Shown: piece by piece, positions 7,536 through 30,498 of the stretch
How the letters are laid out: each line of letters opens with the position of its first letter
Numbering within the stretch: the first letter of the stretch is position 1
Assembly: GCA_964346045.1 (NCBI GenBank)
Contig: CAYFTY010000001.1
Span: forward strand, 1 to 30,498
Direction of reading: 5' to 3'
DNA length: 30,498 nucleotides
From: an uncultured Bradymonadales bacterium
Lineage (GTDB): Bacteria > Myxococcota_A > Bradymonadia > Bradymonadales > Bradymonadaceae
Position numbers and translations under genes: made by a program
Notes under the pieces: generated by a model
What the model saw: the letters and a program-made list of their open reading frames with translations, nothing else
Databases searched by the model: none
Told to the model about the DNA's origin: nothing

Positions 7536-9674
7536 ATGATGAAACGAATGATCACAATCTTGATGGTACTCGCATTCGCAGCCGCGTGCGGCGACGATAC
7601 TGAGGTTCCTGACAATAACACCAACAATACGAACAACGCCGGTGGCGACACCGACGTCGTCGATATGGAGCCGGATGCGGATCCCGACATGGCCGAACCG
7701 GACATGGATCCCGACATGGACCCAGACGTTCCGGATATGGATTCCGACATGGATGTGGTCACCCCGGATATGGGCGATGACATGGAAGCCGACACGGGCG
7801 CTGACATGCCCGAAGAAATGGACATGGAGGAGTTCGACGCACTTCGGACCTGTCTCGAGGATTGTGCCTACAACGGACCGATGGCCGACCAGGTCGATTG
7901 CGACTATGACGGCATTTCGAATGCCGAAGAGATTGTCCAACTCGGAACCGACGCGTGTGAGGTCGATACCGACGGCGATGGCCTGAGTGACCTGGACGAA
8001 CTCCAGGCTGCGACCGATCCACTCAACGCTGATTCCGATGGCGATGGCCTCGAGGACGGGCGTGAGCTCGATTTTGGCTTTGACCCGAACAATCCGAATT
8101 CACTCAACGACATGCCGCCGATTGCCGATGGCGATCGATGGGTCGTGAATGCATGCAACAACCCCGAGGCAGAAGCCGTGAATTTCTACACGGACGGCCC
8201 CGGAGACTGGCGCATCGCATTGCCGCCAGCTTTCTCGTACGACAGCCTCACGGTTGCAACGGCGACCGCAAGTAATAAGCAGGCCGCCGCGGTCTTCGAC
8301 GACCCGGCCACCGAGGTCTCGGGATTCATTCTCTCGCGTGCCTCGACGGGAACGACGCCTGCACCGGTCGACCTCGTTCAGCAAGTCAACCTCGGTGCCG
8401 TCGGCTCGCTTCAGCAGGGTAATACCGGCGGTGAGTTCGACACGTGGGATGGCAACAAGGCTTCGGTTCGTCGTGAACTTCGGCGTACATCGCAGCTTCG
8501 TTCGGCCCGTCAGGTTCGCGACCAGGCACTCTTTGCCATCGCGCCCTTCGGCCCGGCAGACGTGACGGGTGTGCCGCCTTCGGCAGGTAATACCTACAAC
8601 GACTTCCGTATCTTCGTATCGGTGACAGTACGTCCCGACCCGATCGGCGGAGACCGCATCATCACGGCAGTTGCACTCGCGCCGGCACAGAAATTCGACC
8701 AGCGCGAAAAGGTGCGCTTCCGAATCGATGACCTCTCGAATACCACGAACGTCGGTCAGGCTGGCGACGAACCGCGTACCGGATGCACCACCTTCCGGGC
8801 GACCGAGGGCGCGCCCGCTGCAGACTTCTACTGGGTGATGGACCAGTCGGGCTCGATGTTCGACGACTTCGCAACCCTCATCAGCGTCGGTAATAGCTTC
8901 TTCTCGGCACTCGCCAACTCGCCGCTCGACTATCGACTCGGTGTTGCGAACATGGACGGCCCGACCGAGGGACGTCTACGGGTGCCGCCAGCATGGCACA
9001 AGACCCTTCAGGACTTCACCGACGAGATCAACGGTCACGTGATTAACTGCACGGGCTGCAGTGGAGGACAGGAGTTCGGTCTTCAGGCGGCTCAGGATGG
9101 CATCACCTACATGCGCGGCTCGGCTTCGAGTCAGGTCGAACGTATTCGTGCCGATGCGACCCTGGTCACGATCTGGATGTCCGATGAGGAAGCCCAGTCG
9201 GTCAAAGATGCAGGCGGCGCGAGCAGCAGCTCGGGAAGCAGTCTGGTCGCACAGTACACGAACTTCTTCACGCCGCAGACGGTTGGCTTTGCAATCGTTG
9301 CTACCGACAGCGCGTGTTCGAGCGACCAGTACGAGGGCGACGCCTATCAGGCCGTCGCGCTGGCGACCGGCGGTACGGTTGCTTCGCTTTGCGATAGTGA
9401 CCTGAGCGAGACGATTCAGGAAATCATCATCGCCGCCTCGGCTTCTGCGTCGAACTTCACCCTGCCGCGGACCCCGGTTTCGAGCACGCTGCGCGTGTTC
9501 AAAAATGGCGAGTTCGTGCCGCGTAGTCGTGAAAACGGGTTCGATTACTTCGCCAACACGAATAGCGTGGCGTTCTTCGGAACCTATCGGCCTGAGACGC
9601 CCGATCCGGTGAATTTCTTCTACGGTGATGACTTCGCCGTGAGTTACGAGTATCTCACCGACCGAACGAAGTAA
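7536..9674 (+). CDS. Large surface lipoprotein: acidic linker, TSP3-like Ca-binding repeats, unknown middle domain, vWA/MIDAS domain
   Basis: Lipobox AAA-C18; DxDxDG repeats at 7896-8102; MIDAS motif DQSGS at 8841-8855; downstream WMSDEE; GGAGG RBS. Confidence 0.85.
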   Translation: MMKRMITILMVLAFAAACGDDTEVPDNNTNNTNNAGGDTDVVDMEPDADPDMAEPDMDPDMDPDVPDMDSDMDVVTPDMGDDMEADTGADMPEEMDMEEFDALRTCLEDCAYNGPMADQVDCDYDGISNAEEIVQLGTDACEVDTDGDGLSDLDELQAATDPLNADSDGDGLEDGRELDFGFDPNNPNSLNDMPPIADGDRWVVNACNNPEAEAVNFYTDGPGDWRIALPPAFSYDSLTVATATASNKQAAAVFDDPATEVSGFILSRASTGTTPAPVDLVQQVNLGAVGSLQQGNTGGEFDTWDGNKASVRRELRRTSQLRSARQVRDQALFAIAPFGPADVTGVPPSAGNTYNDFRIFVSVTVRPDPIGGDRIITAVALAPAQKFDQREKVRFRIDDLSNTTNVGQAGDEPRTGCTTFRATEGAPAADFYWVMDQSGSMFDDFATLISVGNSFFSALANSPLDYRLGVANMDGPTEGRLRVPPAWHKTLQDFTDEINGHVINCTGCSGGQEFGLQAAQDGITYMRGSASSQVERIRADATLVTIWMSDEEAQSVKDAGGASSSSGSSLVAQYTNFFTPQTVGFAIVATDSACSSDQYEGDAYQAVALATGGTVASLCDSDLSETIQEIIIAASASASNFTLPRTPVSSTLRVFKNGEFVPRSRENGFDYFANTNSVAFFGTYRPETPDPVNFFYGDDFAVSYEYLTDRTK
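7611..7833 (+). repeat. Coding low-complexity repeats: NNT units followed by (P)DM units
   Basis: DNNTNNTNNA then MEPDADPDMAEPDMDPDMDPDVPDMDSDMD...; recurring CCCGACATGG/GACATGG in the DNA. Confidence 0.85.
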
Positions 9675-26937: not shown

Positions 26938-27576
26938 ATGGGCGCAATAGCCGAAGCGTTTCGCACAGGCGGTGTGTGGATGTATCTCATCCTCGCCACG
27001 TCCATCTTCGCGATTGGTATCGCGATTGAGCGGTTCATTTTCTTGTTTTTCAAATACAACATCAACGCCGAAGCGTTTTACGCTCAGGTGCAGAAGCTGG
27101 TGATGGCTAATAACGTGGACCGCGCCATCAAGCTCTGCAATGCGGCACCGTCGGCAGCATTGCCGAAGGTCGTCAAAGCAGGCCTGACGCGTGCGAACAA
27201 GGGCGAGGTGGAGATCCAGAACGCAGTCGAAGAGGCTACGCTCGAGGTCGTCCCTCGTATCCAGAAGCGCACGACCGCGCTGGCGTCGCTCGCGAATATC
27301 GCGACGCTTCTCGGACTCCTCGGTACCATTATTGGTCTGATCGAGGCCTTCGAGGCACTTGAGAAAGCGACACCTGAGAACCGACAGCGGCTTCTTGCCC
27401 GCGGTATTGCCCTCGCGATGAACACGACGGCATTCGGACTCATCGTCGCTATTCCGACGCTGATTGCACACCTGATTCTTTCGGGACAGACCAAGCGTCT
27501 GCTCGACGAGATCGATCTGTACAGCGTCAAGCTCGAGAACTTGCTCATCAGCCGCGGTAAAGGCGGTAACGAGTAA
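26938..27576 (+). CDS. aglR: MotA/TolQ/ExbB-family ion channel subunit, AglR-like
   Basis: Three TM segments; NIATLLGLLGTIIGLI and TTAFGLIVAIPT motifs; GGAGG RBS. Confidence 0.9.
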   Translation: MGAIAEAFRTGGVWMYLILATSIFAIGIAIERFIFLFFKYNINAEAFYAQVQKLVMANNVDRAIKLCNAAPSAALPKVVKAGLTRANKGEVEIQNAVEEATLEVVPRIQKRTTALASLANIATLLGLLGTIIGLIEAFEALEKATPENRQRLLARGIALAMNTTAFGLIVAIPTLIAHLILSGQTKRLLDEIDLYSVKLENLLISRGKGGNE

Positions 27577-27694
27577 TCCTGTCGTTTTGACCCGTCGTGG
27601 TCTGTCCGCGTCAAAGGAATGACCTGGTGCTTCGCCCTGCTGGGGCGAGGCCCGGTTCTACCCTTTCGGACGACCCACGATTGAGGAGGATCGC

Positions 27695-28360
27695 ATGGCG
27701 CGACAACGCCGAGGCGCAAAAGAAGAGACACCAGAGCTGAATCTCGCGCCCATCATGAACATGGTGGTCATTTTGATTCCCCTGCTTCTGTTGTCCGTGG
27801 TGTTCCTGCAGGTCGGTGTAATTAACATCACCGCACCCAAGCTTTCGATTTCGAATAAGTCGGAACCCACACCGCCGCCCGAAGAACAACCTTTGAACTT
27901 GACCGTCGCGATTGGAGTCAAAGGCTTCAACATTGCGGCGACTGGAGCCAATCTCCCTGAGATGCCTGGCTGTCCCGTCCCCGGGCCGACGATCTGCCTG
28001 GAGGATAATAGCGTCGACGTGGGTGAATCCTTCAAAGACGCGCGTGAGAAACTCACGTCGGGACAGGCTGGAGCGGGTGAGGCGGCGCTCGACAAAGCGA
28101 TGGGCGCGTACAACTGGGTCGAGCTCTACAACACGCTCGCGAAGATCAAAAAAGAGTACCCCGACGAGACTGTGGTGAAGCTTTCGGCCGATCCCGACAT
28201 TCCGTACGCAGCAGTGGTACGTGTGATGGATGTCGCTCGTTTCAAGCTCACGAAGGACAAGTACGACAAATCGAGCGAACTCTGGACTGCAGAGTATGCG
28301 AAGTCCGGTGCTGAGATCGAAGTTCTCTTCCCGGACCCTGTGCTCGCCGTTGTTCAGTAA
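27695..28360 (+). CDS. aglQ: ExbD/TolR-family subunit, AglQ-like, with Asn22 in place of the conserved Asp
   Basis: ELNLAPIMNMVVILIPLLL single TM; periplasmic LSADPDIPYAAVVRVMD motif; GAGGAGG RBS. Confidence 0.82.
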   Translation: MARQRRGAKEETPELNLAPIMNMVVILIPLLLLSVVFLQVGVINITAPKLSISNKSEPTPPPEEQPLNLTVAIGVKGFNIAATGANLPEMPGCPVPGPTICLEDNSVDVGESFKDAREKLTSGQAGAGEAALDKAMGAYNWVELYNTLAKIKKEYPDETVVKLSADPDIPYAAVVRVMDVARFKLTKDKYDKSSELWTAEYAKSGAEIEVLFPDPVLAVVQ

Positions 28361-28384
28361 TTTGGCGAAATAAGGAGGAAGCCC

Positions 28385-28978
28385 ATGTCAGAGACAGGAG
28401 CTTTCAGCGAAGCAGAAGAACAATTCCTCGCCGAACAGCGAGAGCGCGACAAGAAGCGTGACAAGCGCCTCAAGAAGCGAGATACCGACGATGGGGGGCC
28501 GGTGAACATCAACTCGTTGATGGACATCATGGTCATCATCCTCGTCTTCCTTCTAAAGAACTACGGGGACGAGCCGATCAAGGTGGTCGGTAAAGACCTC
28601 AAGGCGCCGCAGAGTTCGACGCAGCTCTCGCCCGAGGACATGACGACTATCACCGTTTCGCAGAGTGCGATCCTCGTGAATAACAAGAGGGCGGTCGGCT
28701 TGAAGAACGGGACGGTCGATAAGAGCCAGAAAAAGGGTGGCGAGGCTAGCCTCAATATTCAGCCGCTCTTCGATGAGCTCACCGAAGCGATCACGCGCAA
28801 AAAGCGTGAGATGAAATTGATCGGACAGGAATATCAGCCCACGGCGACGATCATTGCCGATCAGTCGACGCCCTACAGACTCCTCACCGAGGTGATGTAC
28901 ACGGCGGGCCAGGCCGAGCTCAATCAGTTCAAATTCGCGGTGGTACGGACCGATCGCAAGACCTTTGCGATCGATTAA
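28385..28978 (+). CDS. aglS: ExbD/TolR-family subunit, AglS-like, Asp47 retained
   Basis: NINSLMDIMVIILVFLLKNYG single TM; IIADQSTPYRLLTEVMYTAGQA...FAVV; AAGGAGG RBS. Confidence 0.82.
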   Translation: MSETGAFSEAEEQFLAEQRERDKKRDKRLKKRDTDDGGPVNINSLMDIMVIILVFLLKNYGDEPIKVVGKDLKAPQSSTQLSPEDMTTITVSQSAILVNNKRAVGLKNGTVDKSQKKGGEASLNIQPLFDELTEAITRKKREMKLIGQEYQPTATIIADQSTPYRLLTEVMYTAGQAELNQFKFAVVRTDRKTFAID

Positions 28979-29005: not shown

Positions 29006-29043
29006 CGGGATGAAGAGCGCCACTCTTCATCCCGTTTTTTTTT
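29006..29043 (+). terminator. Strong intrinsic terminator after aglS
   Basis: Perfect 12-bp stem CGGGATGAAGAG-cgcca-CTCTTCATCCCG followed by nine T. Confidence 0.92.
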
Positions 29044-29237
29044 GCCGCGGTTGTATAAAATTGAGCTTTGGGGCATCTTAAGGAATATAGGAACACCCAT
29101 GAGATCGTTCTTTGAATAGCGACGTTTGAACCACGGTCTATCTTTGTGCAGCATGAAGCATCTCGTGCTGGCGAATCGGCCGCTCAAGGTATCCAGACGC
29201 CGACGCTAATTCGGTGGTTGACGAAAAAGGGCCGTCC

Positions 29238-30498
29238 ATGTCGACGAAAAAGCAGCCCGCGAAACAGAAAATTCTTCGGATCGGACTTTTCCAGGATAAG
29301 AACTGTCTGGAAGAGCGGCTGATCCACTCGCGTAAGCCTGTGCACATCGGGCAGGATTTCACCGACAAGCGAAACACCTTCGTTGTGCCTGTGTCGAATA
29401 TGCCCAAGTCGTTCAATGTCTTTGACGTGAACAAAAAGGGGAAATTCGTCCTTCGATTCACCAGGGACATGTCCGGCCGCGTTTCCATGGCCGACGGCAA
29501 GGCGAAGAAACTCGGAGAGCTGGTCTCGGAAGGGAAGGCCAAAAAGGGAAGCAACGGGGTCTACGAAATCCCCATCGACATCCGCACGTTTGGCCGCGTC
29601 GCCTTCGGCAGAGCCGGAGACGAGGTCGCGCTACTCTTTCAGTTCGTCAAACCGCCACCCCCGCGGCCCAAGCCGGTGCTCCCAACGAGCATGCGTGCCG
29701 GGCTCATGTACGGGCTCCTGGGAGCTACCACTCTGGCGATCGCCACCGCCGTCTCGGGCGTTTTCCAAATCGGCTTTGTGGCGTTTTTGCTCAGTCGTGA
29801 TTGGCCCGAGCCCAAAGATCTCGAATACGAGATGCCCGACCGGTTCGTCTCAGTTCTCGTAGATAAAGAAAAAGAAGAGCCACCAAAGCCGGATCTAGAA
29901 GAGGAGACCGGCGAGGAAGTCGACGGACCTGGTGAGGAGGAGGCAGAAGCTGATCCTGCTCCGAAAGCCGAAGAACCTGAGCCCGATCCCGAGCCGAAGT
30001 CACAGACGCCCGAAGAGCGCGCTGCGGCCGAAGCCGAACGGAAGCGTCGGCTGGCCGAAGAAGTTCAGAATAAAACGATCCTCGGACAGATCGGTGCTGT
30101 GAGCTCCGAAGGAGGGTCTCTCGTCGACACGCTCTCGTCGGGAGCGGGAAAGACCTCGATGGAGGAGGCATTCGCAAACTCGCAGGGCGTCAAGACCGGA
30201 GTCGCGGGTGCCGAGAAGAGTGGGCTACGGACCAGCGGCGGCAAAGACGGTGATGGTAAAGGGAAGACCTTTGGCATCGGTGACCTCAAGGGCACAGCAG
30301 GCGCCAACAAAGCGAAAGCCGGCGTGAAGACCGGCTCGAAGACCGAAAAGAAAGTCAAGGTTCGTGTGAATCTGAAAACCCCCGAAAAAATGGTGGGAGG
30401 TACCCTGGATTCCAACTCGGTTTCGCGCGTGTTGAGACGCCGCTCCAAGCGCTTGCAGCGATGTTACGAGCGAGAAGTCAAAAAGAACCCTGGCGCAT
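29238..30498 (+). CDS. gltG: GltG/PglI-like TonB-type energy transducer, 3'-truncated by the window edge and missing from the ORF track
   Basis: Manual translation from ATG 29238 is open to the end: MSTKKQPAKQKILRIGLFQ..., hydrophobic TM segment, Pro/Glu-rich linker, Gly/Lys-rich region, then GTLDSNSVSRVLRRRSKRLQRCYEREVKKNPG (start of an AgmX/PglI-type C-terminal domain). Confidence 0.85.
   Translation, partial: MSTKKQPAKQKILRIGLFQDKNCLEERLIHSRKPVHIGQDFTDKRNTFVVPVSNMPKSFNVFDVNKKGKFVLRFTRDMSGRVSMADGKAKKLGELVSEGKAKKGSNGVYEIPIDIRTFGRVAFGRAGDEVALLFQFVKPPPPRPKPVLPTSMRAGLMYGLLGATTLAIATAVSGVFQIGFVAFLLSRDWPEPKDLEYEMPDRFVSVLVDKEKEEPPKPDLEEETGEEVDGPGEEEAEADPAPKAEEPEPDPEPKSQTPEERAAAEAERKRRLAEEVQNKTILGQIGAVSSEGGSLVDTLSSGAGKTSMEEAFANSQGVKTGVAGAEKSGLRTSGGKDGDGKGKTFGIGDLKGTAGANKAKAGVKTGSKTEKKVKVRVNLKTPEKMVGGTLDSNSVSRVLRRRSKRLQRCYEREVKKNPGA

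Follow-up and report, generated by a model that had tools for sequence, protein, structure and literature searches.

Asparagine in place of the proton-carrying aspartate in the Q-type subunit of an AglRQS-like gene triad from an uncultured Bradymonadales bacterium

The two ExbD/TolR paralogues of an AglRQS-like gene triad from an uncultured Bradymonadales bacterium differ at the position of the proton-carrying aspartate: the first, a Q-type subunit, has Asn22 at this position, and the second, an AglS-like or S-type subunit, has Asp47. This combination of an Asp-less Q-type subunit with an Asp-bearing S-type subunit is found in most of the sampled Myxococcota families and, patchily, in Bdellovibrionota, and a full-text literature search found no paper on an Asp-less AglQ or ExbD paralogue, which is not proof of absence. 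We consider it probable that the two proteins form an obligate Q/S heterodimeric axle inside an AglR-like pentamer, with the S-type Asp as the sole proton carrier. The window analyzed here is a stretch of 30,498 nucleotides (GenBank assembly GCA_964346045.1, contig CAYFTY010000001.1, forward strand) whose reads derive from a microbial-mat metagenome. The annotation of its close homologues names Bradymonadaceae, Lujinxingia, Persicimonas and Microvenator.

The triad lies near the downstream end of the window, with all of its genes on the plus strand. It begins with a gene for an AglR-like channel subunit of the MotA/TolQ/ExbB family (positions 26938 to 27576, 212 amino acids), which matches PF01618 with 94.3 bits and shows weak matches to TolQ and ExbB NCBIfam models, all of them under cut-off. 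The Q-type gene, gene 1, follows at 27695 to 28360 (221 amino acids, ATG start) and is preceded by the Shine-Dalgarno sequence GAGGAGGA at 27683-27690. Gene 2, the S-type gene, occupies 28385 to 28978 (197 amino acids) and encodes a protein with a long, charged cytoplasmic N-terminal tail. With scores of 47.2 bits for gene 1 and 39.2 bits for gene 2, both proteins exceed the gathering score of the Pfam ExbD family PF02472 (25.4 bits), and both genes have intact frames and strong Shine-Dalgarno sequences. A hairpin resembling an intrinsic terminator (29006 to 29043, plus strand; a 12-bp stem with 7 GC pairs, then a T run) starts 28 nt past the stop codon of the S-type gene and ends the aglR-Q-S unit ahead of a gltG-like gene, and transcription of gltG may accordingly be separate from that of the motor genes. 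This gltG-like gene, which encodes a TonB-type partner, runs from 29214 to 30497 on the plus strand, where it is truncated by the contig end; its NCBIfam matches are to NF033760 (E 1.1e-23, below cut-off) and to an AgmX/PglI C-terminal domain. Upstream of the triad are genes whose products weakly resemble GltC, GltE and CglF, with NCBIfam scores under threshold, as well as one gene for a 1190-amino-acid TPR protein. Apart from the value given for NF033760, the matches to GltC, GltE, CglF and GltG range from E 2e-14 to 5e-4, and all are far under the equivalog cut-offs.

Reading of the two open reading frames bore out the residues on which the original prediction was built. The N-terminus of the gene 1 protein is MARQRRGAKEETPELNLAPIMN22MVV and continues ILIPLLLL, so that the motif is P-I-M-N22-M, and codon 22 is AAC (27758 to 27760, plus strand). 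The gene 2 protein reads NINSLMD47IMVIILVFLL, with the motif S-L-M-D47-I and GAC as codon 47 (28523-28525). The conserved intramembrane Asp that members of the ExbD family carry at the third residue beyond a Pro or Ser is thus absent from gene 1 and present in gene 2. An alignment by hmmalign gives N22 one column in common with three kinds of Asp: that of a canonical TolR encoded in a Myxococcus-type genome (SINITPLVDVV), Asp28 of the apparent AglQ (EIPLIPFID28LLF) and that of Bdellovibrionota relatives (LNLAPMLDIIV). The Pro three residues before the site is common to the N22 protein and all of these reference types. No other acidic residue is found in the TM helix of gene 1 (residues 17-40) that could take the channel position, and Asp47 is the sole intramembrane carboxylate of the triad.

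Asn22 is not peculiar to the assembled sequence. Among the 120 closest orthologues listed (53-90% identity), all 118 that are full-length carry Asn at position 22, making this an invariant column, and across the wider sample the Asn codon at the site is AAC in 80 cases and AAT in 14. Given that both Asn codons are in use, Asn22 is, as judged from these alignments, under purifying selection, and we regard it as a selected residue and not as an error. Logan contigs from two runs of one microbial-mat sample span position 27758 and read AAC, with no mismatch to the window. Although one transition would suffice to turn GAC into AAC and coverage by reads is low, at about 4x, the probability that Asn22 reflects a sequencing or assembly error or an incipient pseudogene is negligible: the relatives and the reads have AAC or AAT, the open reading frame is intact and the Shine-Dalgarno sequence is strong. 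We therefore rejected artefact or decay as an explanation, and the earlier proposal of a selected change in a gene without decay stands.

To place this residue in a wider context, we searched 1.84 billion cluster representatives with a Q-type profile, which yielded 829 clusters at E <= 1e-10. Of the 150 best among these 829 clusters, nearly all that include the N-terminus carry N at the site, with a few carrying S, A or G and one D noticed. Within the window's phylum, 301 genomes were sampled, and the Q-type profile matched in 197 of them. At all 60 loci that we fetched, representing approximately 25 families, an AglR-like gene is followed by an Asp-less Q-type gene (N, S, A or G) and then by an S-type gene with Asp. 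The sample was widened with Myxococcus-type genomes, with more families and with 30 loci drawn from 121 sampled Bdellovibrionota genomes, giving 142 complete triads from Myxococcota and Bdellovibrionota that share with the window the R -> Q -> S contiguity of a TolQ-like gene and two distinct ExbD-like paralogues. The Q-type site in these triads is D in 44, N in 82, A in 8, S in 6 and G in 1, counts that are inflated toward N by locus sampling, since loci L001-L056 were found by patterns including 'MN' and loci L057-L116 were hand-picked as top matches to a profile made from Asn-type sequences. Counts by family are safer in this respect: 27 Myxococcota families have an Asp-less Q-type subunit and 6 have one with Asp (f9, f21, f32, f42, f44 and f48). 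The Asn that the original prediction described as a feature of this locus is therefore indeed present here, but it is clade-wide and not specific to the window.

The S-type site behaves differently. Every one of the 141 aligned S-type proteins from the complete triads has Asp there, and the one that could not be aligned reads D by eye. Moreover, 97 of the Q-type genes in complete triads lack the Asp, and each of them has an Asp-bearing S-type gene directly downstream and an AglR-like gene upstream, so the expectation that the PIMN type would prove to be a conserved subfamily invariably accompanied by a partner with Asp was borne out. The Q-type Asp has been lost repeatedly: the well-supported branches of the Q-type tree require at least 5 D/non-D changes, and its best topology requires 6, as compared to zero changes of the S-type Asp across the sampled triads. 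The window's own genome contains a second triad of this kind (contig C1107:1-1731), with Asn in the Q-type protein (VIPVMNLFMV), Asp in the S-type protein (TSLLDMF) and Gln at the position of the TM3 Glu in AglR. In addition, orphan Asp-less Q-type paralogues that adjoin neither an AglR-like nor an S-type gene occur as second copies in Bradymonadales-type genomes (L023, L028, L032, L033, L036-L039 and L073).

The AglR-like subunit is remodeled as well. The TM3 Glu position, which we take to correspond to TolQ E173 and ExbB E176, is occupied by Leu159 in the window (CTC, 27412-27414). Thr residues in TM2 (LLGT) and TM3 (N-T-T) are conserved throughout the triads, and these are presumably equivalent to TolQ T145 and T178, which face the B-subunit Asp. 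All Myxococcota triads in which both ExbD-type subunits carry Asp (D/D) retain the TM3 Glu (GISEAM), and those with an Asp-less Q-type subunit have L, I, V, M, T or K instead, such that in every Myxococcota family examined the TM3 Glu is present with the Q-type Asp and absent without it. This perfect co-occurrence within Myxococcota may represent a single event. The two traits are uncoupled in Bdellovibrionota, where 26 triads combine a Q-type D with a non-Glu residue and one combines N with Glu. An independent-pairs test of Glu loss against Q-type Asp loss identified 5-6 pairs, of which 1-2 changed in the same direction and 0 in the opposite direction, and was not significant. The coupling of the two losses is thus suggestive only. 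Acidic residues at the end of AglR TM2 differ among lineages.

We compared the window's triad to that of Myxococcus xanthus, in which both ExbD paralogues carry Asp according to a review (PMC9389320). In both systems a single TolQ-like gene precedes two genes for non-identical proteins of the TolR/ExbD type; also common to them are the long charged N-terminal tail of the second ExbD paralogue, GltC/D/E/F/G-like genes nearby (represented in the window by weak, sub-threshold matches) and a predicted Q-S pairing. They differ in that M. xanthus, in agreement with the apparent AglQ and AglS genes of Myxococcus-type genomes, is D/D where the window has a Q-type Asn, and in that the apparent AglR of Myxococcus-type genomes has the TM3 Glu where the window's AglR-like protein has Leu. 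AglRQS proper was recognized by inference from gene lengths and the exact position of D28: the apparent AglQ has 160 amino acids with Asp at residue 28, and the published AglQ has 162 amino acids and D28. A search with NF033760 (GltG) that was to single out Myxococcus genomes gave no genome above cut-off. The six D/D Myxococcota families, which are apparently Myxococcus relatives, often have two triads back to back, one of which fits the published lengths of AglR, AglQ and AglS and D28. At loci L117-L120 (genomes G240, G220, G041 and G017), for example, the apparent aglRQS genes are divergent from, and back to back with, a second R-Q-S triad that is nearer to the window's, and L117 has a third AglQ-like gene at 8142-8693. 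The window's Q-type protein scores 58-85 bits against the second Myxococcus-type triad and 22-40 bits against the apparent AglQ; likewise, its S-type protein scores 115-137 bits against the second triad and 29-43 bits against the apparent AglS. On an unrooted Q-type tree, the apparent AglQ groups with the second Myxococcus-type Q in a clade with an SH-aLRT of 99, and the window's protein falls outside it, in a different, large clade. Given these separate clades, gene 1 appears to be a co-orthologue of AglQ at best. The label "AglQ-like" in the original prediction is consequently apt for a positional counterpart but does not seem to denote a close relative of AglQ.

The Q-type TM helix is more conserved than the rest of the protein, much as in the S-type subunit. 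Mean pairwise identity among Q-type proteins is 55% in the TM helix and 34% in the periplasmic domain, as compared to 62% and 38%, respectively, among S-type proteins. P19, L27, I28 and P29 of the Q-type protein are near-invariant, an acidic residue is retained at position 14, and the helix keeps the P-x-x-[D/N] geometry of the ExbD type. The conservation of the helix together with the acidic position 14 fits a helix that is packed within a complex. Residues 17-38 of the Q-type proteins contain no acidic residue, and position 39 is Glu, Lys or Gln and is not conserved. The periplasmic domain has an insertion with two cysteines, C93 and C101 (27971-27973 and 27995-27997), in the motif G-C-P-x-P-G-P-T-I-C-L; both are invariant in an alignment of 29 close orthologues and probably form a disulfide. 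The Q-type periplasmic domain with its insertion is also reused in larger proteins: proteins of 300-1276 amino acids match the Q-type periplasmic part alone (profile positions approximately 55-220; P0262, P0273, P0277, P0281 and P0373), and genome matches restricted to this part include G251:C350:759-1154 and G206:C147:8429-8872.

The physical pairing of the two proteins was addressed with a fold test of the gene 1 and gene 2 products (Q1+S2), which gave an ipSAE of 0.69 as compared to 0.20 for the best control, a mark that is attained by 51 of 78 solved complexes and by 2 of 108 mismatched pairs. Confident TM contacts in the predicted complex are limited to residues 28 and 53, that is, N22+6 and D47+6, which would put N22 and D47 at equal membrane depth. 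This result supports Q-S binding, with the qualification that the pass may stem simply from the resemblance of the pair to ExbD/TolR homodimers of known structure and that the test does not distinguish a heterodimer from a homodimer. A profile search of PDB sequences produced no usable ExbD alignment.

These observations are consistent with a model in which the three genes encode an ion-driven envelope motor of the AglRQS type. Its central axle would be the obligate heterodimer of the Q-type (Asn22) and S-type (Asp47) subunits, surrounded by the AglR-like pentamer, and we infer a 5:1:1 stoichiometry, proton coupling and a stepping mechanism. The coupling proton would be bound and released by the S-type Asp alone, and the Q-type helix would serve as a permanently neutral partner whose Asn mimics a protonated Asp and could still hydrogen-bond the conserved Thr residues of AglR. 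To judge from the drift of the site among N, S, A and G, a small side chain without charge would be enough here. Such a motor would use one proton per two sub-steps or pull in a reciprocating fashion. For M. xanthus AglR5:AglQ:AglS, an AlphaFold model places one AglQ helix and one AglS helix in the pore of the pentamer (PMC11761067), and in the solved 5:2 motors (Ton, Tol and Mot) the two Asp residues are always in unlike environments (PMC12215075). Tentatively, and as a possibility to which we give distinctly less credence, these triads may constitute a single-carboxylate class of 5:2-type motors, in which the S-type Asp is the only carrier and the Q-type subunit is neutral. Motors of this class would take one proton per 72 degrees or would reciprocate instead of rotating, and the form with two Asp residues and the TM3 Glu would have been kept or regained where the motor drives processive gliding, as in Myxococcus relatives and many Bdellovibrionota.

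With an artefact set aside as above, two other explanations have to be weighed against the single-Asp heterodimer. The more serious of these, which we nevertheless regard as rather unlikely, is that the working motor is an AglR5:(S-type)2 homodimer with two Asp residues, with the Asp-less Q-type protein standing apart from it as an accessory, either a non-conducting AglR5:Q2 plug or storage complex or a peripheral regulator or linker to Glt parts. A D-to-N change at this site kills all of the homodimeric motors studied as well as M. xanthus AglQ, in which D28N paralyzes the motor (PMC3858216); a neutral residue is therefore not tolerated at the site in every background, which counts against the single-Asp heterodimer. 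The N/S/A/G drift is also what would be expected where the chemistry of the site no longer counts, longer proteins reuse the Q-type periplasmic domain only, and the orphan paralogues without R or S neighbors indicate that Q-type proteins may also act outside a fixed Q/S pair. However, an accessory of this sort is less easily reconciled with a Q-type TM helix that is approximately as constrained as that of the S-type and has retained its P-x-x-[D/N] geometry, or with an R -> Q -> S order that is fixed in 142 of 142 complete triads. The fold test likewise favors Q-S contact, with the predicted helices in register, and M. xanthus needs each of aglR, aglQ and aglS (PMC3858216). The original prediction had offered a heterodimeric stator with one protonatable subunit and a plug or regulatory partner as alternatives; the evidence lends support to this pair of readings and the fold test leans toward Q-S binding, but the data are compatible with both.

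The other explanation, which we consider quite improbable, holds that the number of ion-binding sites is not reduced, either because the carboxylate has been relocated to another acidic residue of the Q-type helix or AglR, or because a different ion is coupled. The remodeling of the AglR channel lining, in which the TM3 Glu is gone and the N-T-T motif is present, could be taken to point in this direction. Yet AglR has lost a membrane Glu and not gained one, the acids at the end of its TM2 vary by lineage, and the Q-type helix offers no acid within residues 17-38 and an unconserved residue at position 39.

Among other known motors, the E. coli TolQ-TolR and ExbB-ExbD complexes belong to the same Pfam families as the window's proteins and share with them the P-x-x-D helix geometry, the Thr residues of AglR TM2 and TM3 and a periplasmic domain of the ExbD type. 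In TolQ-TolR and ExbB-ExbD, two copies of one subunit, each with the same Asp, make up the axle, and the channel subunit has the TM3 Glu (TolQ E173, ExbB E176). In the window, the axle subunits come from separate genes, a single one of them has the Asp and the channel subunit lacks the TM3 Glu. The mutants MotB D32N and ExbD D25N and those of TolR D23 resemble the window's Q-type subunit in helix position and substitution, with Asn mimicking a protonated Asp. Unlike Asn22, these are laboratory loss-of-function changes that affect both copies of a homodimer; Asn22 is a natural, selected state of one of two different subunits. The layout of the window also resembles the arrangement known from Gammaproteobacteria and further lineages as the Agl/Glt 'core complex', in which gltC/D/E/G-like genes and aglR-Q-S occupy a single locus, as described by Luciano et al. 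2011 (PMC3169522).

The significance of an axle that keeps only one Asp lies in how motors of this family are thought to work. To our knowledge, all current models of MotAB, ExbBD, TolQR and AglRQS have two equivalent Asp residues that alternate as proton carriers, and we know of no laboratory D-to-N change at this site that does not abolish function. Here, nature has switched between D and non-D in one axle subunit at least 5 times, has kept the result for a very long time and has left the Asp of the partner untouched. These triads thus provide a ready-made asymmetric motor with which to probe the need for both Asp residues, the role of the TM3 Glu of the pentamer and the proton cost per step. 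The signature of N/D without Glu, as opposed to D/D with Glu, separates the widespread Agl/Glt 'core complexes' from the apparent gliding motor of M. xanthus.
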